The position numbers and the translations under genes are program-made. A DNA stretch of 25,283 bases from a virus (taxonomy: Duplodnaviria > Heunggongvirae > Uroviricota > Caudoviricetes), in IMG/VR virus record IMGVR_UViG_2597490260_000006; one strand, given 5' to 3'. This document shows, piece by piece, positions 1-24,149 of the stretch. A model generated the notes under the pieces. The model was not told the DNA's origin and searched no databases. It saw only the letters and a list, made by a program, of their open reading frames with translations. Position 1 is the first letter of the stretch, and each line of letters starts with the position of its first letter.

Positions 1-844
1 TGTTTATCACTGGCGACCTGAACCACATCGTCACCAATAGCTATTTTTTTATAGCCCGGAGAAAAACCCGCAATCATATCCAGTGAATCGTTAAACGGTA
101 TCCACACATCAGGCAGCGGCGGCACTATATTCGCATAGGGCTCTGCAGTCACTTCCGCTGCGGCTTCTGCGCGGTCTGCCGCCTTTTCAGCTCGTGTCGC
201 TGCCGACAGAGCCTCATCCTTTTTCTGCCCGGCCTTTGTTGCGTCTGCTGCAGCCTCCCGCGCTTTTGTGGTGGCGACTCCGGCATTTTCAGCGGCTGAC
301 TCTGCATTACGGCGGGAAGCCTCTTCACTGTCTGCGGAGGCTTCTTCTGACGCACGGGCATTTGTCTCTGAACGTTCTGCCGCTGTTGCTGCGTTTTGTG
401 CGGCTGTTTTTGAANNNNNNNNNNGTTCCTGGACGATGCCGCTGCTGTTTCTGATTTCTTTGCTGCCGCTGCGCTCTGAGAGGCGGCTTCAGCGTTGCGT
501 GCCACATCCTCCACCATTTCCTGAAAACGGCGCAATGCCTCCGGCATGACATCATCTTCCGTCATGGCACCGAGAAAATCATTCAGCGTCCCCGGACTGG
601 AACCTTCATAGACGGTAATGGTCCCAACATGTGATGGCTGAGAACCCTCAATCCACAGGATGACGCTGTACTGACCATACTCAACGTCCATACTGTAACG
701 CCCGGCTTCATCAGGATTTTCAGAGGCCACCGTGTTCACCAGTACCGTGGTGCTGTTACGCTTTGCCTTCAGTTGAATAGTGCAGTTCTGTATTGGTTTT
801 CCCGCACCATCTTTCAGCACACCTGAGATTTTTACTGCTGCCAT
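1..844 (-). CDS. stf: Side tail fibre protein Stf, 5' portion (partial, continues beyond window start; interrupted by N-run)
   Basis: Translation from the ATG at 844 (MAAVKISGVLKDGAGKPIQNCTIQLKAKRNSTT...) matches the recalled lambda Stf N-terminus. The track ORF begins at a GTG at 850, but the ATG at 844 has a GGAG 5 nt upstream. After the N-run the track ORF continues in a low-complexity frame; my manual translation shows the Ala/Glu/Ser-rich Stf-like frame starts at 413 and stays open to position 1. Confidence 0.8.
415..424. other. Run of 10 ambiguous bases (assembly gap or masked bases) inside stf
   Basis: Literal n characters at 415-424; the stf reading frame changes phase across it, so true gap length is unknown. 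Confidence 0.95.
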
Positions 845-856
845 ATCCACTCCACA

Positions 857-883
857 AAAAAGCCCGCCTGAACCGGCGGGCTG
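857..883 (-). terminator. Intrinsic terminator-like hairpin between lom and stf
   Basis: Minus-strand reading gives stem GCCCGCC / GGCGGGC with loop GGTTCA followed by TTTTTTG. Confidence 0.5.
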
Positions 884-908
884 TCATAACACTGTGTTGC
901 CTGGTTAA

Positions 909-1508
909 TCAGAATTTATAACCGACACCAACGATGAAACCGTCAGTGCGCCAGTCGCCACTGCCGGAACCTTCATAAGCAATATCAATGGCCACGGATT
1001 CGGTCGGGTTAAACTGCACGCCAGCCCCCCACGCCAGAGACGTGTCGCTGTAGCGACCGTCATCACTTCCGGTCAGCACATCGTCCGTTTTCCCCTTGTT
1101 ATCAGTTACGCGGAGATAATCCCCGGAGAAAGTCGACACACGGCTGTAAGCCACGCCCGCCATCGCATACGTGCTGAACCATTCATTCACGCGTACAGAC
1201 GGCCCCGCCATCATGCTGAACCAGCGGTTACGCACGGAATCTTCATGCCAGCGGGTATCGCTGTAGTGCGTTTTTTGCTCATCCTCAGCATTGGCATAAC
1301 TGAAGGACGTAATCAGCCCCAGCGCGTCCGTAAACTCATAACGGTATTTCACGTTAATCCCGTTCAGATTATCGCTGCCGGGAGCGTTCGTACGGGCATG
1401 AAGATACCCCGCGCTCAGTGTGGACTGATGTTCAGACGCCCATGCAGGCGCACCGGATACGGACAGACAGATGGCTGCGGACAAAATGGCTGCACATAAT
1501 TTACGCAT
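909..1508 (-). CDS. lom: Lom outer membrane protein (Ail/Lom family beta-barrel)
   Basis: 199 aa with N-terminal signal peptide (MRKLCAAILSAAICLSVSGAPAWA) and C-terminus ...DWRTDGFIVGVGYKF with terminal aromatic residue typical of OMPs; sits between J and stf as lom does in lambda. Confidence 0.85.
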   Translation of the reverse strand: MRKLCAAILSAAICLSVSGAPAWASEHQSTLSAGYLHARTNAPGSDNLNGINVKYRYEFTDALGLITSFSYANAEDEQKTHYSDTRWHEDSVRNRWFSMMAGPSVRVNEWFSTYAMAGVAYSRVSTFSGDYLRVTDNKGKTDDVLTGSDDGRYSDTSLAWGAGVQFNPTESVAIDIAYEGSGSGDWRTDGFIVGVGYKF

Positions 1509-1532
1509 AATTACCTCTCGCTTTTCTGCAAT

Positions 1533-1556
1533 AAAAAAGGCGCCATTTCTGGCACC
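1533..1556 (-). terminator. Intrinsic terminator-like hairpin downstream of J
   Basis: Minus strand reads GGUGCC-AGAAAU-GGCGCC (6-bp stem with one G-U wobble) followed by six T residues. Confidence 0.45.
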
Positions 1557-1575
1557 CGTATTGGGGTTATAAAAT

Positions 1576-4500
1576 TCAGCTAATCGTGATGCCTGCAGTG
1601 GCTTTCTTCATCACAACAACCAGCAAATCGCTGATACTTGCTGTGGGATACCAGCCATTTACCCACCATGCTGATACAGAAAACTCCAGCGTCATGTCGC
1701 CGCGACCAGCAGGCATATCAATAACACCACTGTAAACCAGCGTATTATCCATCGCGGTACGGTTATAAATTTCAGCACCGTTTTTCTTCACTATCAGGCG
1801 GCATGACGAATAAGTATCGCTGTTCTCCCGCTCATGTCTGGCACCGCTGAAAGCCACCGCCGGAATAACAATCTGCCGGTTAAACGGCTGATCGTCATAA
1901 ACCCTGACGGTAATGGTTCCTGATGGCCAACGCTTCGGTGCACGGGAGTCACGAGGGAAAGCCTTACCCACTGTTTTAACGAGATCGCCTTCAATCTGGT
2001 TTGCAGACAGTTTCCCTCTGATGACACAGTTCTCGTTAATGGTGACATTATTGAGCGTGCCGGTATTCGCCGTGATGGCTCCACTGATATCCGCATTGCG
2101 GGCTGTCAGCCTGCCATCCGGCGTCAGGGAAAACGTCGGAGGATTGCCGGATGACGTGATGCTCACCGCAAACAGTCGCTTCAGGAACACGTCGTTCATG
2201 AACAGCTGATTCCCCTGCGCCACAAACAGCGGCGTGGTGTTGCCGTTCTCCGGGGTAATCATCGCAATGCGATCGGCCTGCAGCAGAATGTTACTCAGGG
2301 TCTGACCATCAACATCCTCAATCCCCGCACCAATCCCGGCCACATAGGGAATACCGTTTTTTGTTTTCTGCACCTTCAGCATATACATGGCATTCAGCTC
2401 ATTGCGCGTGTCTGACTGAACCCGCTGGATTTGCTGTATGGTCACGGCCTGGTCACCCAGCTTTTTATCCGTGGTCGAGGTAATTTCACTCCCTTTTTTA
2501 TCCACGTACTGGCGGACCTGTGCTATCTGTCGGGCGTTTTCTGACTGCCCCTGGCTGACAGTCTGTGAGATTTCACTGCTCACCCGGTCCACTTTCTGGC
2601 TCACCTGCGCGATGGCCAGTGTCTGATCCTCATTCTTTTTCGCAACCAGCTGCGTGAGGCTGTTTTCCGCCTTCCCGATTTTCCGGGTCACTTCTGCGAT
2701 ATCCGTGTCCATCCGCTGACGGATATCTTCTTCCAGTTGCGTGACCTCCATACGCAGCGCTGAAGCATCAATGCGCTCTTTCAGTGCCTGACCCAGAAGC
2801 GTCTCATCTATCAGCCCCCGGAAAATTTCCAGATACCCTTCACCATCATTGCTGGGCTGCCCGCTGGCTTCCACAAAAGCAGATTTTCCCACCAGGTTGA
2901 CGCTTCGCACGTAAAACCAGAAATCCGTCCCCGGCTTAATCCGGCTCCCCTGGACAGTCCACTGACTGCCGGTCCCCAGATAACGGGCAGATTTTTCCAC
3001 CTGTGCTGTGTTCGTGATGCGTTTTTCTGAGAACCAGAATTCAAACTGTACCGTCGGGTCATACACCGCAAGACGCGGGACCGCCGTTATCTGAAAATAC
3101 CCCGGCGTCAGCTCAATGGTGGCGGGTTTTGCAGGTGCGTTAATCCGGAACGATACCGACGCCGGATCGCCCTGCTGTCCCCGGGCATTTACCGCCCGGA
3201 CCGTCAGCGTGTAACGCCCCAGCGCCAGCTGCCTGAAGCGGTAAGTGGTTTCCGCCGTCCGGGCCGTGCTGACCAGCCGCTCACTGCCGTCATCCGCTGT
3301 TACGGTCAGACGGAGCAGGAAGCTCACGCCCTTCACCACCTTCGGCGTGTCCCAGCGCGCCAGCACCTGATATTCCCCGCTGTCTGCGGTGACTTCGGCG
3401 GTCAGGTGCTGCACCGCTGGCGGCGTGACACCATTCACCGTGCCGCTCTGGTCGCCGTCAAAGTGCGCTCCGTTATCCACGATGGCCTCTTTTTCCGGCA
3501 CATGCTGCACGGCGGTGATGGCATACGTGCCGTCGTCGTTCTCACGGATACTCACGCAGCGGAACAGTCGCTGGCGCAGCGTCGGCAGCTTCAGCCCCCA
3601 TACGCTGTATTCAGCAACACCGTCAGGAACACGGCTCACTTTTACCTTCACGCCGTCGGTGACGGACTGAACCTCCACGCTGACCGGATTGCCACTTCCG
3701 TCAACCAGGCTTATCAGCGTGGTACCGGAGGATGGCAGCGTGATTTCACGGTCGAGCGTCAGCGTCCGGGTCTGGCTGTTCACCGCCAGCACTCGCCCGC
3801 CGGTGCTGATACCGGCATAGTCATCATCGCAGATTTCAATGACATCGCCCGGTACATGGCGAAGCCCTTCAGCACCCACGCTGAAGTCCACGGTCTGCGT
3901 TTCCAGCAGCTCCGTTTTAATCAGCCACAGCCCGGCGCGGTGTGCCTGCCCCCGACTGGTACAGCCAAAGGCATCCATCTTCGTGACGTTACGACCGTAA
4001 CGGAGAATGGCCTGCGTATCTTCAACAAGCTCTGTCGCCGTCTCCCAGCCGTTATCCGGGTCAATCCAGTTCACCTCAACGGCATTATGGCGGTCCTTCA
4101 GGGCGCTGAAGCTGTAGCGGAACGGCGCGCCATCATCCGGCATCACCACATTACTGCGGTTATAGGTCCACACCTTATCCGACGGTCGGTCCTGCACGAA
4201 CGTCAGCGTCTGCCCGTTCCATACCGGCATACAGCGCATCGCCGAACAGAAATCACTGAGCACATCCCACGCCTTACGCTGTGTGGTCAGGTACGCATTA
4301 CAGGTGATGCGCGGCTCCGTGCCACCAAAACCATCCGGCACCGACTGGTCGCAATACTGTCCGATGACATACAGCGCCCATTTGTCCACATCCGCCGCAC
4401 CAAGACGTTTCCCCATGCCGTAGCGCGGATGGGTCAGCATATCCCACAGACACCATGCCATGTTGTTGCTGTATGCCGGTTTAAACGTTCCGTCCCAGAT

Positions 4501-5274
4501 ACCGCTGTATTGCCGCCTCTGCGGGTTATAGTTCGACGGCACCTGCAGAATGCGCCCGCGAAGATGATAATTACGACTCACCTGCTGGCTGCCGAACTGT
4601 TCCGAGTCCACCTGCACGCCGACCAGTGCCGTGTTCGGGTAGCACTGTTTCACATCGATGATTTCGGTGTATGACGACCAGAGCGTTTTGTTCTGCAGCT
4701 GGTCTGTGGTGCTGTCCGGTGTCATCCTGCGCATCCGGATATTGAACGGGCGCGGAGGCAGATTATCCACCACCACCGAGGCCAGATACTGCGAGGTGGT
4801 TTTGCCCTTAATGGTGATGTCTTTTTCCGTCACCCAGCCACCGTTACGTTGTATCTGAACCAGCAGGCGAACTTCCGACGGATTCCGGTCCCCCTTTGAA
4901 GTGGTTTCCACCAGAGCCTGCACACCGAAGGTAAAGCGCAGACGGTCGATGTTTGCAGACGTGATGGTCCGGGTGATCGGCGTGTCATATTTCACTTCCG
5001 TACCCAGCACCGTCTCGGATCCGGAGGATTCAAAACCCTCCGGCGGTGTCTGCTCCTGCTCACCTGCCCGGAACACCACCGTGACACCGGCGATGTTGGT
5101 ATTCCCTTCACTGTCCAGCACCGGCGTACTGTTCAGCAGCACGCTTTTTAATCCATCCACCGGACCTTCTATCGGTCCTTCGCTGATGGCATCGATCACA
5201 CTCAGTAACTGCGTGGATTTCAGGTTGTCCTTCGCTTCGCGCGGGGTATGCCCCTTACTGCTGCCTTTACCCAT
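1576..5274 (-). CDS. J: Tail tip / host specificity protein J (central fibre)
   Basis: 1232 aa; N-terminus [44 protein letters not shown]... matches recalled lambda J over a long stretch; GGAG 8 nt upstream of the ATG. The C-terminal roughly 400 aa, including a coiled-coil-like segment, differ from lambda J. Confidence 0.9.
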
Positions 5275-5297
5275 TCGTCATGCTCCATAAACGACAA

Positions 5298-5315
5298 AAC
5301 CGCCCGCAGGCGGTT
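5298..5315 (-). terminator. Hairpin with U-tract in the I-J intergenic region
   Basis: Minus strand reads AACCGCC-TGCG-GGCGGTT followed by TTGTCGTTT; could be a partial terminator or mRNA structure. Confidence 0.35.
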
Positions 5316-5334
5316 TCACATAAAACATTTTGCA

Positions 5335-5982
5335 TCAGCGACCAATCACCACAACCTGACCACCATCCCCTTCGTCTGCCGTGCTGATCTCCTGAGAAAC
5401 CACCCGCGACCCCACACGCATTTCACCGTACAGAACAGGCAGAACATTGCCCTGAGCAACCATGTTATCCAGTGAGGAAAAATAGGTGTTCTGTTTGCCG
5501 TTATCTGTACTGGCTGCCGTGGACGTCCTGGCTTTCGGTGCCAGCATCTGCGCCACACCGCCCAGGATCATACTGGCCCCTGCCGCATACATGCCCGATA
5601 CAGCCGCGGCACCCAGCCAGCCCACAGGGTTCCACCATGCCACCGCAATCAACGCCGCCCCCAGCACCACCTGAAATACACCGCCACTTTTAGCTCCCGC
5701 CAGACGCGGCACGATATGGATCACGGCACCATTTGCCAGCGGCTCATTAAGACGGGCAGATAATTCGGTTTCACCTGCATCACGCCCGGCAATGCGCACC
5801 TGATACCAGCCGTCATTCAGTTTCTGACGAAACGCCGGGAGCTGTGTGGCCAGCGCCCGGATGGCTTCGGCCCCCGTTTTCACACGAAGGTCGATGCGGC
5901 GACCAAATCGTTGCAAATCCCCGTAAAGGCAGATGCGTGCCATGCCCGGTGACGCCAGAGGGAGTGTGTGCGTCGCTGCCAT
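5335..5982 (-). CDS. I: Tail assembly protein I
   Basis: 215 aa; MAATHTLPLASPGMARICLYGDLQRFGRRIDLRVKTGAEAIRAL... and C-terminus ...NVLPVLYGEMRVGSRVVSQEISTADEGDGGQVVVIGR match recalled lambda gpI; overlaps K as in lambda. Confidence 0.85.
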   Translation of the reverse strand: MAATHTLPLASPGMARICLYGDLQRFGRRIDLRVKTGAEAIRALATQLPAFRQKLNDGWYQVRIAGRDAGETELSARLNEPLANGAVIHIVPRLAGAKSGGVFQVVLGAALIAVAWWNPVGWLGAAAVSGMYAAGASMILGGVAQMLAPKARTSTAASTDNGKQNTYFSSLDNMVAQGNVLPVLYGEMRVGSRVVSQEISTADEGDGGQVVVIGR

Positions 5983-6623
5983 TTGTCGGTATACCTCTCT
6001 CGTTTGCTCAGTTGTTCAGGAATATGGTGCAGCAGCTCGCCGTCACCACAGTAAATGGCGGCATGATTCGGCACCGATGAACCAAAACAGCACAGCAGCA
6101 CATCGCCCGGCTGCGCCGCTGACAACGGCACCTGATACAGCCCTGTGGCCTCCAGATTATCCAGATAGAGATTCTGACCGTGACGCCACCAGTCATCCCC
6201 GCGATGAAAATCCGGCATCTCAATCCCCGCCAGATGATAAGCATCCCGGAACAGCGTGTAACAGTCCGTCACCCCGTGCTCAAAGCGCCGCCCGGTAAGA
6301 TGCGGCACACAGCGGAATTTATGAATCTCACCCCGGCAGACCAGCCACCACAGCAAATCACTCTGCACCTGCAGCCGCCGGTCGGCCTCACTCAGCCAGG
6401 GCAGACCACCGGGGTGGCTGTGGACCAGCGCCACAATCTCACCCTGCATCTCTGCCCGCAGCCAGTCCTCCGGCGACATCCGGAAATACGCCTCCGGCTC
6501 ACCGGAGATATTCACGCAGGGAAAATATCTTTCCCCCTCCGGCGTTCTCACCACGAAGCCGCACGACTCCGCTGGCGCACATCGCCGGGCGTGCGCCAGA
6601 ATCGCTGATTCTGTCTGTGTCAT
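5880..6623 (-). CDS. K: Tail assembly protein K (JAMM/MPN metalloprotease plus NlpC/P60-like domain)
   Basis: Start moved to the internal ATG at 6623 (MTQTESAILAHARRCAPAESCGF...), since upstream codons overlap the L gene end. Contains the JAMM motif HSHPGGLPWLSEAD (HxH-x7-S-xx-D). Confidence 0.85.
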   Translation of the reverse strand: MTQTESAILAHARRCAPAESCGFVVRTPEGERYFPCVNISGEPEAYFRMSPEDWLRAEMQGEIVALVHSHPGGLPWLSEADRRLQVQSDLLWWLVCRGEIHKFRCVPHLTGRRFEHGVTDCYTLFRDAYHLAGIEMPDFHRGDDWWRHGQNLYLDNLEATGLYQVPLSAAQPGDVLLCCFGSSVPNHAAIYCGDGELLHHIPEQLSKRERYTDKWQRRTHSLWRHRAWHASAFTGICNDLVAASTFV

Positions 6624-6627
6624 GGGA

Positions 6628-7326
6628 TTACTGCGAAAGTTTGTTAATGGAAAGGAAGCCGCCAAAGTTGCCGACGTTATTGCGAAACTTACAACCACTC
6701 AGGCATTTGCTGCATTTATCCTTCGTGATATCGGACGTCGGCTGGTCATATTCATCCGCGACAGCCGGACCGTGATAACCGCACTCATCACCGCGATAGG
6801 TCCAGGTGCAGGTATTAGCCAGCATGATGCGCCCCGGAAAAACAGCACCGTCCGTTTCCGTCGGCGTGGACAGTACAAAAGAGGCACTGACCGCGCTCAG
6901 TTCGCTGCACTGCTCGATGCGCCAGCGGCTGATCACCTCCTGCTCCGGATCGGCGTCACTGTTTCCGTTGACGAAGTTCACCGCATCCAGAAAACGGGCG
7001 TAAACCTTACGCCTGACCACCGTTCCGCCGACCAGACTCTGCAGGTCTTCCGCCATCCCGGTGACCATTCCGTGCAGGTTAGAAACCGTCAGTGTCGGAC
7101 GGGCAGCACTGCCCTTGCCGTTCAGTTCAAATCCCGTCCCCTGAATGGGGTATGCCTGATACTGCCGCCCCTGCCAGGTAACCGGCTCACCTTTTTCGTT
7201 CTGCTCATTACAGAAAAAATAACGTTCACCACCGACCTCTGTCAGATCGATTTCCCAGAGCACCGCCTGGGCTGACTGAGTGAGGCGTGTCGTCTCATGA
7301 TGTGTTTCCTGTGGAATATCCTGCAT
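6628..7326 (-). CDS. L: Minor tail protein L
   Basis: 232 aa; MQDIPQETHHETTRLTQSAQAVLWEIDLTEVGGERYFFCNEQNEKGEP... matches recalled lambda gpL; C-terminal Cys cluster (CGYHG...DKCSKCLSGCKF). Confidence 0.9.
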   Translation of the reverse strand: MQDIPQETHHETTRLTQSAQAVLWEIDLTEVGGERYFFCNEQNEKGEPVTWQGRQYQAYPIQGTGFELNGKGSAARPTLTVSNLHGMVTGMAEDLQSLVGGTVVRRKVYARFLDAVNFVNGNSDADPEQEVISRWRIEQCSELSAVSASFVLSTPTETDGAVFPGRIMLANTCTWTYRGDECGYHGPAVADEYDQPTSDITKDKCSKCLSGCKFRNNVGNFGGFLSINKLSQ

Positions 7327-7335
7327 CAGAGCCTC

Positions 7336-7665
7336 CTATGCCACGACCTGTTCAAAATCTGCCGTTATGGTTACCCACAACGCCCCCACGCTTGCCGACC
7401 ATTTACGACAAACCACCCTGATCGGCTTCCAGTCATAAGGTGGCGTCCACTGAAATGCGCGGACGCCACCGTGCCGTTCCAGAAAGGATTTTAAAGATGG
7501 GTGTTCACATTTACGAACACGTATCGTCACGCTGTAAGTCGACAACTGGTTATTCAGTCCCGCCGCACGACGCTGTTCATAACCATCGCCCAGCTTCACT
7601 GTCACCACTTTCGGCTCTGATACCACATTCATATCCGGGCGCACTTTCCAGTGAAACGTCTCCAT
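7336..7665 (-). CDS. M: Minor tail protein M
   Basis: 109 aa; METFHWKVRPDMNVVSEPKVV...TADFEQVVA matches recalled lambda gpM; its ATG shares one base with the H stop codon. Confidence 0.9.
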   Translation of the reverse strand: METFHWKVRPDMNVVSEPKVVTVKLGDGYEQRRAAGLNNQLSTYSVTIRVRKCEHPSLKSFLERHGGVRAFQWTPPYDWKPIRVVCRKWSASVGALWVTITADFEQVVA

Positions 7666-10600
7666 TACCGATATGCTCCACTTAACCGACCACCATCACG
7701 GGCCTGCTGTTGCATAAAGTCCGCTGCCGCTTTTTTCCCAAGGTCATAAACCACCTTCAGGGCAGCAGGACCTATCTGCCCGTTCGTGCCATCGTTATTG
7801 ATCTCGATGTTGTACTGCGGGGCAAACATCGCCATACCTGAACCACCAATATCCGCCACAACCCCCAGCTTACCGTCAGCACCACGACGCAGTGGCAGAA
7901 TGGCTTCAGGTCCAGCTTCCCCCATCACACCCGCGCCTTTTGCAAAAGCAAAAAACGTCGGACGGTTAACCACCGTGCCACTGTAGCGACTCAAATCAGC
8001 CGACTGATAAACACCGCCATCAGCATTGGCTACAAAATCAAAAGGCAGCGCGGAAGCAATGCCTTTTACCGCTTTCATTAAAGCTATCTGAGCCATGATT
8101 CTGGACATATCTGACAGCACAGAAGAGGTGAAGGATTTGAAATTGAGTTTGCCTGTAGTACAGAATGTCGCCAGCCAGTCACTCATGCTACTGAACGCAG
8201 ACGTGAACAACTGTTCCACTGTCCCGGCTGTGTTATCCGCATTCTCAGTGACATTCTGGAGTGCACGCAGGACTCCGTTTTTCCAATTACCCTGAGCAAT
8301 TTCAAGCCGTTGCCAGTAACGGCGATTCTCATTCAGTTGTCGGTTCAGACTCTCCGTCAGCGCCTGCTCGGCCTTTCTGTAGTCATCCGTGTTATATGTC
8401 CCTTTCTGCTCACTATCCCGCCTCAACTGCTCCAGCTGTTGCTGGTATTTCTGGCGAAGACTCAGTTGTACCTGATATCGCTGCCGCTGCTGATCACCCA
8501 TACCCACCGTGGCGATATCCAGGTCATGTTGCTGACGCTGAGCGCGCTCTTCTTCAGCCAGTTGACTGGTCAGCTGAATTGTTTTTTTCTTCAGATCGTT
8601 GAGTGCCGTCTGTTTCTGAAGCTCCTGCTGTTTTACATCCAGCAGCGTCAGTGCCTGAATCAGTTCATCTTTACGGGCCAGCACACTCTTTTCATCTGCC
8701 GTCAGTTTTTTCCCGTCCAGATCGCTGATGCGCTGCTGCAGAGCCAGAAGCTGTTTATGCGCTTCTGTCATCTTTTCAGTGGCAATGCCTGCTGACTGTC
8801 TTGCAGCAGCAATCTGTCCTTCCACCTGTGCCTGTTGCTGACTGTACTGCAGCAATAACCGGGTGGCCTCATCATTACGGGTTTCGCGTGTTTTTTTCTT
8901 ACCGGATGCCAGGGCTTTCTCGTAACGTTCATTTTCACGTTGTATCGCCGCATCCCTGACAGCCTGATCGGCGTACTGCATGGCATTAATACGCGCAATT
9001 TCACGCTGATGTCGTGCAGCTTCCGTTTCATTCATCCGGTTCAGTGCAGCATTTTCAGCATTACGGCGTTTCTGTTGCTCCTGATAATTCCGCTCTGCCT
9101 GCTCTTTTGCATCCTGCAAATCCTTCTGGCGTTTTTTCTCCTGAAGATCGTTAAGACGCTGCTGATCGTATTCAACCTGAGAAGATGATGCCGTCCAGGG
9201 GAGTCTTTTCGCCCGCGACACTTTCTCCTGCAAAGTGGCAATCTGCGCATCCAGCGAATCTTCACGACCAATATTCATGGCCGCATCCCAGAACTGCTTC
9301 CACCAGTCAGACAAAGTTTGCAGCGTACTGCCCAGCGCATTGAGGTTATTATCAATATCCGCAGTACGCCGACCGGTTTCCTCTGCCAGTGCAGACATGG
9401 CTATCCGTGCCGCATCACTGGACCGCCCCTGCTCTCCAAGGACGCGTATCTGCTCAAGCTGAGTGGCAGTAAGAAAATGCAGCTCATTGTCCAGAGACTT
9501 CGCGGCATTTACAGGATCATCCTTCAGCCGCTTAAACTGATTTATGGTATCGCTGACCGACTGGCCAACCGATCGCTCCATCTGTGCGGCAGCTCTCGCC
9601 ACCATACCGATATCGTTTCCACGAAATGCACCACTCCCCACCACCTGAGCCAGCGCACCGGCTGCAGCATGTTGCGTGATACCATTCCCGGAAATAGCAC
9701 GACTGAGCGTCCACAGCTGCCCGGCAGTGACTCCGGCATAATGCCCCGTCAGCGACAGCTGGCGGTTAAATTCTTCCCCCTCCTTCTGACCGTCATACCA
9801 GGCTTTACCCAGGCCATAGACAGCCGCGGCAATACCGCCAATAACCCCGCCAAGCATCATGCCTTTCGGTGACATCAATGTGTCTATCCACCCGGCACGG
9901 TTAGCCAGCGTTATTCCGGATCCCCTCAGCGCACCTAAATTTCCGCGGGCCAGTTCACCTATCAGAACGCCTATCTCCTGACGGGCCGCTGCACTTTTCA
10001 GCCCCAGCGAATGCGTGGCTTTTCCTGCCTGCTCCATTTTGCGGATATACACTTCTGCAGCACTGCTTACCCCCAGCTGGGCAGCCTTGGCACGAAGCAA
10101 CTCAGAAGAAGAAAGATTCTGGCGGGTTGCCTGCTCTTTAAGCTGACGGATAAACGCCACTTTCTGTCGGGTAGCCTCTTCCTCAGCCTGTGTAAGAACA
10201 CGGGTTTTCGCCGTAACCTCAGAAATCAGCGCCAGATAATCCTGCTGACCAATCCCGCCACTGTTTCTGGCCTGTCGGATCTGCTGCTGAATACGCTGTA
10301 ATTCCTGCAGACCCGCACTGGCCTGTTTCACACTGTCAATCTGACGATAAAACGCAGCAGCCGCTTTATCCTGAGCCTCCGCCAGAGCCATGGCCTGCGC
10401 CTGTTCCTCGCGCATTTTCTGGCTCAGCGCCTCCATACGCTGGCGGGTTTTCTCCACCTCGCGGGCCATGCGTTCATGAGCCTGTGCGTTCTTCTCCACC
10501 GTCTGCGCATGGACGGATGCGGCTGTTGCAGCCGAAGACGCCGCCTGCGTTGTCTGCCGGGCGGCCTGAGTCTGACGCTCCATAAAACGCTGCATACGGG

Positions 10601-13897: not shown

Positions 13898-15856
13898 TTA
13901 CGCCGTACATTTCACCAGACCGCGGTGATCAACTGGCGCGACACCGGCGTCAATACGCACTTTCGTTGTCACGCCATCCACACTGAAGCCCTCCATCTGA
14001 TCAATATATGGCGTATCCACACCGTTGAGATAAGCCACTTCAATCGTATCGGAGCCTTTGGACGCAGCCAGGTAGAAAGTGGTCTGGCTGTTATCATCAA
14101 GACGAGGCTCTGCAATAACGGTCGCAAAATCTTTCACCGGGTTAATAATACCGGCGTTAATGTCAGCCCCCTTGACACTTGAGGAGCGAATGACCTGGTT
14201 AGCAACAGACTCCATCGCCGTCGGTACCAGTACGAACGCAGGACGAATATTCAGATGACGCTCCCCCTCTTTCTGAACGCGCATCAACTGGCGGGCTTTA
14301 TCCAGCGATGCCACGTCCATTGCAGCGCTCTCCAGTACGTTTGCATGTTTCGCTTTATCGAACAGACTTACATTATCTGTGGAGATTTTCGGGTTAGACG
14401 TCAGAATGGCATAAACCAGATCGGCAATAGTGGATTTCGCCGCACGGCCCAGTTTCATCGGGACATCGGTCAGCATATTCAGATCATCATTGATAATGGC
14501 CTGACGGGTGATACTGAACAGCTCGCCATAGGTCGCCAGTGCAATAGTGGCCTGTTTATCTCCGGTGGTGACGTATTTATATTCCGCCCCTTCACGCACC
14601 TTACGCAGAGCACTGAAGCCCCCCATACCCACACGATGGGCAATTTTAAAATCAGACAACTGACCTTTCCGCGTCCACTGTTCATAGGTTTCAGGGGCAT
14701 CTTCCCAGCCCTGCAGAATGGCTTTGTTCGCAACATCCAGCAGAATATTACCGAAGTCAGACGTACTGTGTGTGAACGCCGCACCGACCATCTGCATCGG
14801 GTTATAACTGGAAACACCAATACCCCGTTCAGTCAGTGACATACGGGCATATTCACGCAGAGTCATCCCGTTGTAGACATTATCACGTTCGGTTTTTTCA
14901 AATCCGGCACGCGCCATCAGCGCCTGGCGGATCCCGTCCCCCACAAAATTACCGTTACCGGCATAAATATGAGCCGGGGTATTTTTATTGGATGGCGTGG
15001 ACTCGCGCCCCATCTCGTTCAACAGCTTTTCGCGGGCCTGCTCCAGCGAACATTCAGGATCGGCAAGGCACTGAGCCTGCAGCGTCTGATAACGCCCGCC
15101 AAACATGGCAAACAGATCATTAATACCGTTTACACGCGCTTTTTGCTCTGCCAGTACCTGCGCACGGATACTGTTTTCATCCAGCACGGGTGCTGCTGCC
15201 TGCACTGGCGTCCGGGAGGCTGCAGGTTCATTATCCTGTACGCGTGGAGCACTGTTACGTGGCGGAGTAATCATGTTTCGAATGGATTCCGGCATCTTTT
15301 TAAATTCCTCTGTACGTTTTGACTGAATACATGCCATTGCCTTAACGGCTGGCGTCACCTGATCAGCAAATCCCTGTGCCAGACATTCGGCACCGGACAT
15401 CCAGGTCTCATCCGCCAGCATGGCAGCAATTTCATCGGTGGTTTTCCCGGTTTTCTGTGCATAAGCGGGTAACAGAACCGCCTCAACTTTATCGAGCAGG
15501 TCGGCATAGGTGCGCATGTCCTCCGCATCACCGCCCGTAAAGCCAAATGGTTTATGAATCATCATGAAGGTGTTTTCCGGCATAATGACCGGGTTTCCCA
15601 CCATCGCAATGACCGACGCCATTGACGCCGCCACACCGTCGACATAAACGGTAATGGACGCACCATGTGTTTTCAGTGCATTAAAAATGGCGATGCCTTC
15701 AAAGACATCGCCACCCGGTGAATTGATATGGAGATTAATGTGGGTGATATCGCCCAGTGCATTCAGATCACTGATAAACTGCTTCGCCGTAACACCCCAG
15801 AAACCAATCTCGTCATAAATATAAATATCCGCATCACTCTGGTGACCAGCCTGCAT
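13898..15856 (-). CDS. Fused prohead protease (ClpP-like) - scaffold - major capsid protein
   Basis: Start placed at the first ATG after the portal stop (MQAGHQSDADIYIYDEIGFWG...), about 652 aa. N-terminal region has ClpP-type motifs (HINSPGGDVFEG, AASMASVIA, MMIHKP). It is followed by a Gln/Ala/Glu-rich linker and a long C-terminal domain in the position and size of a major capsid protein. Confidence 0.75.
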   Translation of the reverse strand: MQAGHQSDADIYIYDEIGFWGVTAKQFISDLNALGDITHINLHINSPGGDVFEGIAIFNALKTHGASITVYVDGVAASMASVIAMVGNPVIMPENTFMMIHKPFGFTGGDAEDMRTYADLLDKVEAVLLPAYAQKTGKTTDEIAAMLADETWMSGAECLAQGFADQVTPAVKAMACIQSKRTEEFKKMPESIRNMITPPRNSAPRVQDNEPAASRTPVQAAAPVLDENSIRAQVLAEQKARVNGINDLFAMFGGRYQTLQAQCLADPECSLEQAREKLLNEMGRESTPSNKNTPAHIYAGNGNFVGDGIRQALMARAGFEKTERDNVYNGMTLREYARMSLTERGIGVSSYNPMQMVGAAFTHSTSDFGNILLDVANKAILQGWEDAPETYEQWTRKGQLSDFKIAHRVGMGGFSALRKVREGAEYKYVTTGDKQATIALATYGELFSITRQAIINDDLNMLTDVPMKLGRAAKSTIADLVYAILTSNPKISTDNVSLFDKAKHANVLESAAMDVASLDKARQLMRVQKEGERHLNIRPAFVLVPTAMESVANQVIRSSSVKGADINAGIINPVKDFATVIAEPRLDDNSQTTFYLAASKGSDTIEVAYLNGVDTPYIDQMEGFSVDGVTTKVRIDAGVAPVDHRGLVKCTA

Positions 15857-15869
15857 CCTGAACCAGGAA

Positions 15870-17378
15870 TTATTCTTCGGACTGGTTGTTGGTGTGCTGC
15901 GGCTCCTGTCGTTTCGTTGCGGCACTGCTGCCTCCTTTATCACTGGCCGGATCGGTATCAAATACCAGATCCAGCTTGCGGTTTTCATCAATTTCGGCCT
16001 TGCGCCGACGTTTGACATCATCCGGATTACGACCACCAGCACGTACCCAGTCTGATTCTGTCGCCGCTCCACCACGAATCTGGATTTTCCAGGCCTCAGC
16101 CTCCTTAACAGGGTCAATCCACGGCATCACCGGTCCGGAATACACCGCGGTATACAGTGAAGAACGGTCAAGATCGCGGGGTAGCCTGATAACACCGGAT
16201 GCCACAGCCTGTTTCAGCCAGGCACGGTACATCGGGCGGGTGACGGCACCAATAAACCAGTCCTGCAGGATCAGGTAGCCATCAGTGGATTCAACCAGCT
16301 CCTGACGCTGGGCGCTGTAAGTGCCGTTATAGTTGCGCGCTGTACTGGAAAAACTCAGACGACTGCCAGCCGCCACGGCACGCAACTGACCATTACGAAA
16401 AGTTTCAAGGTTAGGATTGGGACGATCCGACTTCACCATTCCGATTTCTTCGCCGGGTTTCAGATCGTCGTAAATAATGCCTGGCTGAATGGTAAGCTCG
16501 CGTTCATTCTCCTTGCTGTCATTACCATCCGTTTCATAGCTCTGTCCGTCGCCTTTCCGGATGTACATCCCCAGAGCAGCGGCGATCCTTGCTGCAGTCA
16601 GCTCAGAATCTTCATACTCTTTCAGGGCGCTGAGGCGGATCAGCACACCGGACAATAAAGACGTCCCGCGCATCTGGTGCAGACGGCGAACAAATTTAAG
16701 ATGCAGCATTCGCTCTGCATCCACTTCTTTGGTTTCCATCTGCCGTCCGGATACAGGACGACTTTTATACACCAGATATTTTTCGGGACGCCCCCAGTCA
16801 TCAACAAACACGCCCTGATTCAGCCTGTTGCTCTCATCACTGGTCATGGGAATAAAGTCCGGCTCGAGCGCCTCCAGCCAGAAATGAACACCGGCAGAAG
16901 GCGTCAGGCTGTTTATGCGCCCGGAAACCATCTGGGCAAACACCTCACCATCGCGCAGCCAGGTACGCAGCATCAGACGTTCCAGCATCGGACGGGTAAA
17001 CTGCCCGGTGACTTCCGGACTGACAGACCATTCACTCCATCGGGTACGTATCTCCGCTGCCAGGTCACGGGCAATGGCACCATTGCGTAATACCGGATGT
17101 GGCTCGACAATAATCCCGTTTTTCCCCACCACCCGTTCTTCCAGCTTGTCAAATACACCAATGACCAGATCGTGGTTGTTATCAAGGTAACGGGCCTGCT
17201 CACGTAACGACACGGCCCCGTACTGGCTTAACTGGTCGGCAGTTCGGTTCTCCCGTCGGGCTTTGTGTGTCCGCGTCGTTTTTACGGCCTCATAAGCTTG
17301 GATCACCGCTCGGGAACGCAGCCTTGCCGCTTTCCATCCTGGTGAAAAAACGCCAATCACATCATCAAGAATTGCCAT
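15870..17378 (-). CDS. Portal protein
   Basis: Start placed at the ATG at 17378 (MAILDDVIGVFSPGWKAARLRS...), which shares one base with the W-like stop (TGATG) and has GAGG 5 nt upstream. About 502 aa between the W-like gene and the protease-capsid gene. Confidence 0.8.
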   Translation of the reverse strand: MAILDDVIGVFSPGWKAARLRSRAVIQAYEAVKTTRTHKARRENRTADQLSQYGAVSLREQARYLDNNHDLVIGVFDKLEERVVGKNGIIVEPHPVLRNGAIARDLAAEIRTRWSEWSVSPEVTGQFTRPMLERLMLRTWLRDGEVFAQMVSGRINSLTPSAGVHFWLEALEPDFIPMTSDESNRLNQGVFVDDWGRPEKYLVYKSRPVSGRQMETKEVDAERMLHLKFVRRLHQMRGTSLLSGVLIRLSALKEYEDSELTAARIAAALGMYIRKGDGQSYETDGNDSKENERELTIQPGIIYDDLKPGEEIGMVKSDRPNPNLETFRNGQLRAVAAGSRLSFSSTARNYNGTYSAQRQELVESTDGYLILQDWFIGAVTRPMYRAWLKQAVASGVIRLPRDLDRSSLYTAVYSGPVMPWIDPVKEAEAWKIQIRGGAATESDWVRAGGRNPDDVKRRRKAEIDENRKLDLVFDTDPASDKGGSSAATKRQEPQHTNNQSEE

Positions 17379-20280: not shown

Positions 20281-20344
20281 ATAACCATTAATAATCAATA
20301 AGATGCAAAGATGATGGTGGCCAATAAAAATGCAAAAACTAGCC

Positions 20345-20370
20345 TTTTTCCGCGACGCTCCCGCCCCGTG
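20345..20370. other. Candidate cosN (cohesive end site)
   Basis: Late-strand sequence GGGGCGGGAGCGTCGCGG resembles the recalled lambda left end GGGCGGCGACCTCGCGG (shared GGGCGG and TCGCGG flanks), about 170 bp upstream of the Nu1-like start, comparable to the lambda spacing. Confidence 0.45.
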
Positions 20371-20817
20371 GCAGGCCCCCCCACCGGGAGGACCCGTCAG
20401 CCTGACAGCCATAACGAACGTCTGATACAGCCCTTACATGAATGGCATCGGGATAATCCAGAAAGGAATAGCATCGACCCACAAGAATCTGTGTGAGTGT
20501 CCTGTTTCTTCCACCCCCGCACAGGACTGGCGAGCATGAGGGACAACCCCGCGAACCATAACCGCGCTGATGACAGGACTGGCCCGGCTTGTATTGCTTC
20601 CAGCCTTCGCTTTTGTGGCTTTTGCAATAGCCTGACGGATCTGTGGTGGTATTGCGGTAGCCGCGAACACGGCAGGTTTTTGGGGTTCGTGGGGGCATAT
20701 GTACTCCAATGAAGAAGCCACCAACATAGCCTCCTCCATTCATCGTGAAACTATTTTCATCTACCCAGTAATGAATTCTTTGAAGAGTTGTGATCAATAC
20801 AACTCGCTAATGGAGAG

Positions 20818-23096: not shown

Positions 23097-24149
23097 TTAT
23101 TTCCCCACCAGCTCGTTTATCTCTTTCACTGTCTGGTTAAACCGCTCTGACTCAAGCTCAACACCTAAGGCCCGACGCCCCAGCGCCATTGCTGCTTTTA
23201 TTGTGGAACCGGATCCCATAAAAAAATCAGCAACCAGATCACCAGGTCGACTACTGGCATTGATTATTTGCCTGAGCATATCCGCCGGTTTCTCACACGG
23301 ATGTTTACCCGGGTAGAACTGAACGGGTTTATGCATCCAGACATCGGTATAAGGCACGGAGACTGATACGGAGAAATAGCGCCGGAGAGATTTAAACTCA
23401 TCCAGCAATTCAGAATATTTGCGATTCAGTGAATCATAAGATGCCACCAGCTGGTGGTGTGGTTGTTCCAGTTGTTGTTCCTGAAACTTCTCTGCCGCTA
23501 TACGGGAAAACAGTGCCTGTAACTTCCGATAGTCAGCCTCATTCGGCAACTGCCACTGACTGGCACCAAACCAGTGGGAAACCATATTTTTCTTACCTGT
23601 GGCTTCGGCAATTTGTTTTGCCGTTATACCCAGTTCGGCACGAGCATCCCTGAAATACGATATCAGCGGTGCCATTATGTGCTGTTTGAGTTCCCTTTCT
23701 TTTGCCGCATAGCCGTCACTTTTGCCGCGATATGGCCCCTGGTAATGTTCAGCAAACAGAACGCGCTCTGTGGCAGGAAAATATGCGCGCAGACTTTCTT
23801 TATTACACCCATTCCAACGTCCGGACGGCTTCGCCCAGATGATATGGTTAAGCACGTTGAAACGTTCACGCATCATGATCTCAATATCAGATGCCAGGCG
23901 ATGCCCACAGAACAGGTAAAGGCTTCCGGCAGGTTTTAACACCCGCCAGAACTGGGCCAGACAGTGGTCCAGCCACTTAAGGTAATCTTCGTCCCCTTTC
24001 CACTGATTGTCCCAACCGTTGGGTTTCACCTTGAAGTACGGCGGATCGGTAACAATCAGGTCAATGGAATCATCAGGCAGGGACTGAATAAAATGCAGGC
24101 AATCAGCGTTGATTAAATCAACACTGTTTATTTTTACAGTATTTTTCAT
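23097..24149 (-). CDS. DNA methyltransferase, N6-adenine or N4-cytosine type, beta-class motif order, no adjacent restriction gene
   Basis: 350 aa; DPPY motif near the N-terminus (LIVTDPPYF) and FxGxG AdoMet-binding motif near the C-terminus ([13 protein letters not shown]); a helix-turn-helix-like segment in the middle. No obvious Shine-Dalgarno before the ATG. Confidence 0.85.

Follow-up and report, generated by a model that had tools for sequence, protein, structure and literature searches.

A mosaic lambdoid J allele with a lengthened helical shaft and a receptor-binding tip predicted to recognize OmpC

Does a J protein that parts from phage lambda J in its C-terminal portion also use a receptor other than LamB? 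This question is raised by a stretch of 25,283 nucleotides (hereafter the window) from the IMG/VR virus record IMGVR_UViG_2597490260_000006 (Caudoviricetes). Its initial annotation described a J protein that is lambda-like at the N-terminus and carries a longer coiled-coil-like segment and a different distal domain, and took this divergence as the reason why a different receptor is likely. Here we describe how this J is built, what it is related to, where its mosaic boundaries lie, how its repeats are arranged and how prevalent it is, with domain names taken from the lambda cryo-EM work (PMC11101478). The features discussed are the following:

909..1508, minus strand: lom-like outer-membrane protein gene, downstream of J, in the same order as in lambda
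1576..5274, minus strand: complete J gene (tail-tip / central tail fibre protein), 1232 codons and a stop
3295..5274, minus strand: J aa 1-660, hub domains and start of FNIII-1, near-identical to lambda (PF24801 at aa 86-207, PF13550 at aa 330-498)
2818..3294, minus strand: J aa 661-819, remaining FNIII-1 and FNIII-2 (PF24421 at aa 610-714, PF24489 at aa 716-818)
2386..2841, minus strand: J aa 812-963, alpha-helical shaft (AHS), ~150 residues versus ~50 in lambda
2455..2757, minus strand: J aa 840-940, insertion of 101 aa not present in lambda, ~3.5 repeat units of 29 residues each
1972..2385, minus strand: J aa 964-1101, beta-prism central straight fibre (CSF), moderately conserved (PF09327 at aa 946-1073)
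1579..1971, minus strand: J aa 1102-1232, Ig-like receptor-binding domain (RBD) of 'class A' (1A2 / O157-prophage) type (PF12421)

The window comes from an E. coli lambdoid prophage. Its bases 1-8000 are 100% identical to the MS21324 chromosome and are also matched at ≥95% in several hundred other complete genomes. The MS21324 prophage adjoins ssrA, and its genes run in the order Lom, gpJ, tail assembly protein, C40 peptidase, L, M, tape measure and further genes, with head, lysis, Q, CI/Cro and integrase genes beyond the tape measure. Both the order of ORFs in the window and the way in which the identical MS21324 region is annotated show the lambda-type gene order round J. The prophage is apparently intact. 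The J ORF is unbroken in the ORF list and its translation; it scores 2333 bits against the NCBIfam model NF049904 (lambda_TipJ; curated cutoff, 1950), and its MS21324 match is annotated in RefSeq as gpJ. The lom-like gene belongs to the Ail/Lom family by annotation of its MS21324 match; its best NCBIfam matches, PRK15240 and PRK09408 (both Ail/OmpX-type), are each below the curated cutoff. The side-fibre gene neighbouring J contains a run of N and is whole in MS21324. A true frameshifting deletion in this side-fibre gene, as an explanation of the 43-bp length difference from MS21324, was ruled out: 10 N stand in place of 53 bp, so that the difference represents an assembly or masking gap.

Global alignment with lambda J (NC_001416, 15505-18903, 1132 aa), with identities calculated in windows of 30 codons, places the onset of divergence at ~aa 661 and that of strong divergence at ~aa 751. 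Residues 1-660 are 96-100% identical to lambda (92-100% at the nucleotide level), which agrees with the several hundred lambda-like residues noted initially, whereas aa 661-750 show ~83-93% protein and 84-90% nucleotide identity and the sequence from aa 751 onward shows 30-80% and 49-76%, respectively. Divergence rises across the remaining FNIII-1 and FNIII-2 (aa 661-819), where the sliding protein identity declines from ~88% to ~47-70% and DNA similarity to lambda and 434 ends at ~aa 818. Positions 1576-2900, the part of the gene singled out by the initial annotation, encode aa 792-1232, the strongly diverged 3' third of the ORF; the divergence is real, but its extent is nearer 480 residues, the insertion included, than the roughly 400 estimated. 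The estimate that J is about 100 aa longer than its lambda counterpart was accurate, the difference being exactly 100 (1232 versus 1132 aa), and the whole excess resides in a single 101-aa gap in lambda (839/840), opposite window J aa 840-940.

The DNA of the gene is not of one kind. In blastn, the alignment with lambda breaks off at window position 2821 (J aa 818), with a weak return (74%) over aa 1000-1083; no blastn match to lambda lies downstream of aa 1083, in a region that includes the whole RBD. Over the first ~818-829 codons, DNA identity to lambda, 434, phage 21 and PhiR55_1 is 91-93%. For the last ~300 codons, the closest DNA among six phage J genes is that of Stx2a_WGPS2 (85%), and the insertion DNA has no match in the J genes of lambda, 21, 434, phi330, WGPS2 or PhiR55_1. 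The J gene is a mosaic at the DNA level.

The domain layout follows that of lambda. Six Pfam families, all above their gathering scores, occur in the same order in the window J and in lambda J: FNIII-A, hub (Phage-tail_3), Ig_J, Ig_J_second, Phage_Tail_Tip and Ig_GpJ_C. The sole difference in layout is an uncovered stretch of 127 residues between Ig_J_second (716-818) and Phage_Tail_Tip (946-1073), which constitutes the shaft. The CSF that follows is 60-80% identical to lambda over aa 991-1080 and aligns with the solved gpJ chains 8xck and 9wca.

The claim of a different distal domain holds for the sequence, as the tip is only 42% identical to that of lambda and hence not close to it, but not for the family, which is that of the lambda RBD (PF12421). 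Residues 1102-1232 match the Ig_GpJ_C profile over its entire length (1-135 of 135, E=6.7e-38, 130 bits; cutoff, 26.2), and the C-terminal 441 aa match the solved gpJ chains 9wca, 8xcj and 8iyk by sequence. An AlphaFold2 monomer model, whose low confidence (mean pLDDT 52.7) reflects a single chain of an intertwined trimer and a shallow alignment and which was used for secondary structure and family-level Foldseek comparison alone, has as its top Foldseek matches the lambda and A8 gpJ fibres 9wca, 8xck, 8xcj and 9wcb, the last deposited as 'A8 gpJ 713 central tail fiber with OmpC'. These Pfam, PDB-sequence and Foldseek data rule out a novel distal domain and identify the tip as a homologue of the lambda Ig-like RBD. 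Its identity to other tips is as follows:

PhiR40_1: 100%
Stx2a_WGPS2 and PhiR55_1: 87-89%
gpJ-1A2 chimera: 87-88%; receptor OmpC
phage 21: 55-63%; receptor LamB, OmpC after one mutation
A8 / phi330: 55-62%; receptor OmpC
lambda: 42-45%; receptor LamB
434: 36-42%; receptor OmpC

At 42% identity, the window tip lacks the close similarity to the lambda RBD that would mark it as LamB-type. Divergence from lambda is nevertheless an insufficient argument for a change of receptor, as the tip of phage 21 is only 44-47% identical to that of lambda and yet uses LamB (PMC11336670). The expectation of a different receptor finds better support in the 87-88% identity of the tip to that of 1A2, a chimera that delivers DNA through OmpC and not LamB. 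In the work of Brödel et al., C-termini of natural E. coli J proteins were fused to lambda J at residue 964 and the chimeras were screened on a lamB-deleted recipient; A8 and 1A2 were then tried on cells that lacked both lamB and ompC and were supplied with OmpC variants, where A8 was active on both K-12 and EDL933 OmpC and 1A2 on EDL933-type OmpC only, not on K-12 OmpC (PMC11338833). A follow-up study states that both 'recognise OmpC ... rather than LamB' (bioRxiv 10.1101/2025.02.28.640725). Elsewhere in the family, phi330 loses its ability to plate when ompC is knocked out and regains it upon complementation, and the central fibre of 434 has been described as OmpC-targeting (PMC12502783). 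The gpJ-1A2 sequence used here was obtained from machine-read supplement DNA, stitched and translated across read-error frameshifts, and its tip is 96-97% identical to the natural tips of WGPS2 and PhiR55_1. Since the window tip falls in the 1A2 class, OmpC is its best-supported receptor and, judging by sequence, most likely the one that it uses rather than LamB of lambda.

The same comparison bears on two alternatives. The tip could still bind LamB, its divergence being due to drift or to adaptation to LamB variants, much as phage 21 has kept LamB; the window tip is 57-63% identical to that of phage 21. We regard this as quite unlikely, because the much closer 1A2 tip came from a lamB-deleted screen, with OmpC and not LamB as its receptor, and its activity varied with the OmpC allele supplied (PMC11338833). 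The second alternative, only slightly less unlikely, is that the tip recognizes another outer-membrane protein (OmpF, FhuA, etc.) or an OmpC allele too specific for the 1A2 result to be transferred. The window tip differs from that of 1A2 by 19 substitutions, at least six of which fall within the loops at aa 1107-1118, 1146-1154 and 1204-1212, whose phi330 counterparts are predicted to contact OmpC; the contact-loop differences are K1114E, R1146K, N1151H, S1152T, T1154I, W1204L and G1207N. Specificity could therefore differ, in the OmpC allele or even in the porin. One J mutation adds OmpC to the LamB of phage 21, and a few mutations take both lambda and phage 21 to OmpF or OmpC (PMC11336670), so that 88% identity is no guarantee of the same receptor, and 1A2, for its part, accepts some OmpC alleles and not others (PMC11338833). 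Against this second alternative, the characterized family members compared (lambda, 21, 434, phi330, A8 and 1A2) all have LamB or OmpC as their natural or designed receptor, and the loops of the window tip and 1A2 are identical in length, differing by substitutions only, with no indels anywhere in the tip. Outside the source paper of PhiR40_1, the literature searched contained no adsorption or knockout experiments on this allele or on PhiR40_1, and the receptors of PhiR40_1, Stx2a_WGPS2 and PhiR55_1 were not reported in it.

The second departure from lambda lies in the shaft. What had been described as a longer coiled-coil-like segment is indeed a proline-free stretch of predicted helix with a periodicity of 29 residues. 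Pro is absent from J aa 836-945, where Q, A, S, V, T, D, E and K abound, and the low-confidence AlphaFold2 model has helices at aa 812-822, 826-939 and 943-963, the latter two forming a nearly continuous helix over aa 826-963, followed by beta structure and a C-terminal beta-sandwich. BLOSUM62 autocorrelation over aa 820-975 has its top offset at 29 (z=6.3 versus 500 shuffles) and reaches z=4.2 at 58; other peaks are seen at 11, 22, 40 and 51, with those at 11 and 22 also above the shuffles. Such peaks would be expected from a unit that combines two helical repeats of 11 residues with one of 7. When the sequence is laid out in rows of 29 residues, recurring motifs become visible, such as xIAQVxQxVDxxxSEI. 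The repeats, which are evident from the autocorrelation and from natural length variants, are too diverged for BLASTP self-comparison of aa 791-1010, which did not find them, and for Tandem Repeats Finder, which found no DNA repeat in the insertion. A Pfam scan of the shaft alone returned generic coiled-coil families, all of them sub-threshold and none informative.

The insertion is flanked by the two conserved ends of the shaft, the FNIII-proximal end (lambda 812-839) and the CSF-proximal end (lambda 840-861), the latter of which turns into beta-strands upon LamB binding (PMC11101478). With this position between both ends, the insertion looks like a spacer that spares the functional parts of the shaft. 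By analogy with solved fibres, the shaft is probably a trimeric coiled coil, and with such predicted geometry the 101 additional residues, at 0.15 nm each, would make the closed fibre ~15 nm longer than that of lambda, which measures 29.7 nm in the closed state.

Natural alleles differ in shaft length, measured here between the motifs GKSAF (in FNIII-2) and YVAGIG (in the CSF):

77 aa: lambda, 434
105 aa: phage 21, phi330, Stx2a_WGPS2, PhiR55_1
178 aa: window J, PhiR40_1
214 aa: P0006
247 aa: P0071

A search with the C-terminal 441 aa of J gave 8000 matches, the best 120 of which were used to find length variants. With the exception of one Shigella flexneri sequence, almost all of these best 120 were E. 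coli fragments, and the usual names among them were phage tail tip protein, DUF1983 and host specificity protein J; nothing about function could be learned from them. The step from the window J to P0006 (178 to 214 aa) is accounted for by a 29-residue unit ([29 protein letters not shown]) that is visibly duplicated, together with a 7-residue insertion, and the shaft appears to gain or lose whole repeat units. The 178-aa shaft is joined, among the matches listed, either to a window-type (class-A) tip or to a phage-21-like one, so that shaft and tip represent independent modules.

What such variation may be for is a more tentative matter. The natural range of shafts may add up to ~25 nm of fibre, whatever the tip type, and a longer shaft could carry the tip through a thick capsule or O-antigen to the porin, several listed carriers of the long allele being ExPEC/APEC strains; it could instead be a place where side fibres dock, as they do in F2 pyocins. 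It is possible, though on the doubtful side, that the lambdoid J shaft is a length-variable cassette of 29-residue repeats whose length is selected for reach or for side-fibre docking. As the trigger signal of lambda runs through the shaft, long alleles would furthermore show over what distance it can be transmitted. An earlier description of modular variation in shaft length was not found in the literature searched, which makes this variation by 29-residue repeats a modestly fresh point, a lead rather than a discovery.

An insertion of this size might also be the non-functional expansion of a decaying prophage remnant. Many E. coli prophages are defective, and the gene next to J carries the run of N mentioned above. 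The J ORF, however, is intact, that run is an assembly or masking gap in a gene that MS21324 has whole, the insertion is kept at ≥95% identity in 613 records, and a 98.6% identical J belongs to a plaque-forming phage, PhiR40_1 (PMC13190303), all of which makes decay highly improbable. The J of PhiR40_1 (PV340560), like that of the window, has 1232 aa; there are 17 substitutions, two of them in the last 441 aa. Because this phage, which was induced from the ECOR collection and grown on ECOR13, forms plaques with a near-identical J, the long-shaft allele is functional in infectious virions. PhiR40_1 reportedly belongs to the Brenes & Laub 2025 panel. Apart from its source paper, the literature searched showed PhiR40_1 in use only in the SNIPE study, where it is among the phages cited for ManYZ-independent protection.

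Taken as a whole, the data make it quite probable that the window encodes a natural mosaic lambdoid J allele of four modules, with lambda-like action, a longer fibre and OmpC as its predicted receptor. The hub and FNIII region of lambda/434/21 type (aa 1 to ~818) would build the tail tip; it is followed by an alpha-helical shaft lengthened by 101 aa (~3.5 repeats of 29 residues), by the conserved beta-prism fibre and by an Ig-like RBD of the kind most frequent among E. coli prophages. The tip of the J trimer would dock on a trimeric outer-membrane porin, whereupon a conformational signal would travel up the fibre and open the tail tip. Both the lambda-like triggering and the homotrimeric central fibre are proposed by analogy, the latter from homology to the solved trimers 8XCK and 9WCA.

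The allele is already known and nothing rare: it is annotated as gpJ and belongs to a very common class. Judged by DNA matches among 5426 complete E. coli genomes, the window-type tip is present in 3932, 3371 of them at ≥80% coverage, and has a best identity of ≥90% in 2786 records; the insertion DNA is found in 770 of the 5426, lying in a J / tail-tip gene in all matches listed. The tip of lambda itself is matched in 133 of the 5426 genomes, with laboratory derivatives of K-12 and J53 among the matches listed. Given 133 versus 3932 genomes, 'diverged from lambda' should not be read as unusual: the window tip is of the commonest type in E. coli, and lambda is an atypical reference for J. Receptor calls for J proteins should accordingly be made by comparison with the characterized tip classes (lambda, 21, 434, A8/phi330 and 1A2) and not with lambda alone. 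A near-identical tip is already in use as an OmpC-targeting delivery module, and shaft-length polymorphism provides a cheap handle on adsorption through surface glycans and on signalling to the tail tip, as well as a parameter for engineering lambda-based delivery particles.

Among known systems, lambda gpJ (8IYK, 8XCK, 8XCJ) shares with the window J the gene position (I-J-lom-stf), the six Pfam domains and the AHS-CSF-RBD layout, but it is without the 101-aa shaft insertion, its RBD is 42% identical, and it binds LamB, whereas OmpC is predicted for the window. The gpJ-1A2 chimera (Eligo Bioscience) has an RBD of the same class, 87-88% identical between the last CSF layers and the C-terminal end, derived from a natural donor tip like those of Stx2a_WGPS2, PhiR55_1 and O157 prophages; owing to its fusion point at lambda aa 964, it has the short shaft of lambda. 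The J of PhiR40_1 shares both the long shaft and the tip and is in effect the same allele, with minor substitutions; the flanking side-fibre gene differs, at 83% identity over its matched part. The J proteins of A8 / phi330 (9WCA; 9WCB with OmpC) and phage 21 belong to the same RBD family and share the motifs [31 protein letters not shown]. These are porin binders with a shaft one unit longer than that of lambda; they differ from the window J in a barrel-entering hairpin that is 6 residues longer, a shaft that is 73 aa shorter and a tip that is 55-63% identical.

A further comparison is with the F2-pyocin central fibre protein PyoF10 (PDB 25vf), which aligns weakly to the insertion repeats (E=0.0033), a marginal similarity. 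The J homologue of F2 pyocins has an 'exceptionally long' shaft, a coiled coil of three strands to which side fibres dock (PMC13455828). PyoF10 differs from the window J in being a Pseudomonas tailocin with no terminal RBD and with an insertion domain in its shaft; by analogy, the F2-pyocin shaft appears to offer a structural precedent for the long shaft of the window J.

Across J (1232 aa; 1576-5274, minus strand), lom and the upstream tail genes, the window is 97% identical to PhiR40_1, a plaque-forming phage with a near-identical J, which is listed as PhiR40.1 in the SNIPE study among the phages with ManYZ-independent protection (PMC13190303). The side tail fibre gene (window 1-850, minus strand), which lies downstream of lom, has ~83% identity to this phage, counted over the matching part only (L005:8118-8545 in the PhiR40_1 record). 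The side fibre is a mosaic module separate from J. Its open reading frame, as read in the window, spans only 149-850 (233 aa, compared with 687 aa for the intact gene) because of a run of 10 N at positions 415-424. In Escherichia coli MS21324, the closest complete genome, 53 bp of the gene stand in place of this run; 10 N for 53 bp represent an assembly or masking gap and a true deletion was therefore rejected.

In the record of the OmpC-binding phage phi330, J is annotated at 1042 aa (L004:1982-5110), and a 116-aa ORF is listed separately upstream of it. The phi330 J aligns with the window J only from window residue 118 onward, which suggests that the start of the phi330 gene was mis-called or that the record contains a frameshift, rather than that this J is truly shorter. 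Supplementary file 10 of PMC11338833, the source-data sheet behind Extended Data Fig. 2, gives the same values for the engineered gpJ chimeras 1A2 and A8 in Panel C (OmpC-EDL933) and Panel B (OmpC-MG1655), which looks like a copy error in that sheet; both the text of the paper and its data for Fig. 1b have 1A2 active on EDL933 OmpC (PMC11338833).

Two further features, annotated in MS21324, adjoin the lysis cassette and the small terminase (DUF1441) gene, respectively:

23097-24149, minus strand, DNA methyltransferase gene, directly upstream of the lysis cassette
~20339-20797, minus strand, HNH endonuclease pseudogene remnant, next to the small terminase gene

The comparison with lambda concerns two genes, the second of them as annotated in MS21324:

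7665-10751, minus strand, tape measure gene
13898-16117, minus strand, fusion of a ClpP-like prohead protease and the major capsid protein

The tape measure product (~1018-1028 aa) is longer than lambda gpH (853 aa; PMC12617516), which would imply a tail tube longer than that of lambda. The prophage has a lambda-like tail tip despite a differently arranged head module: since protease and capsid protein are annotated as a single fusion gene, whereas lambda has separate C, Nu3 and E genes, this module is organized unlike its lambda counterpart.
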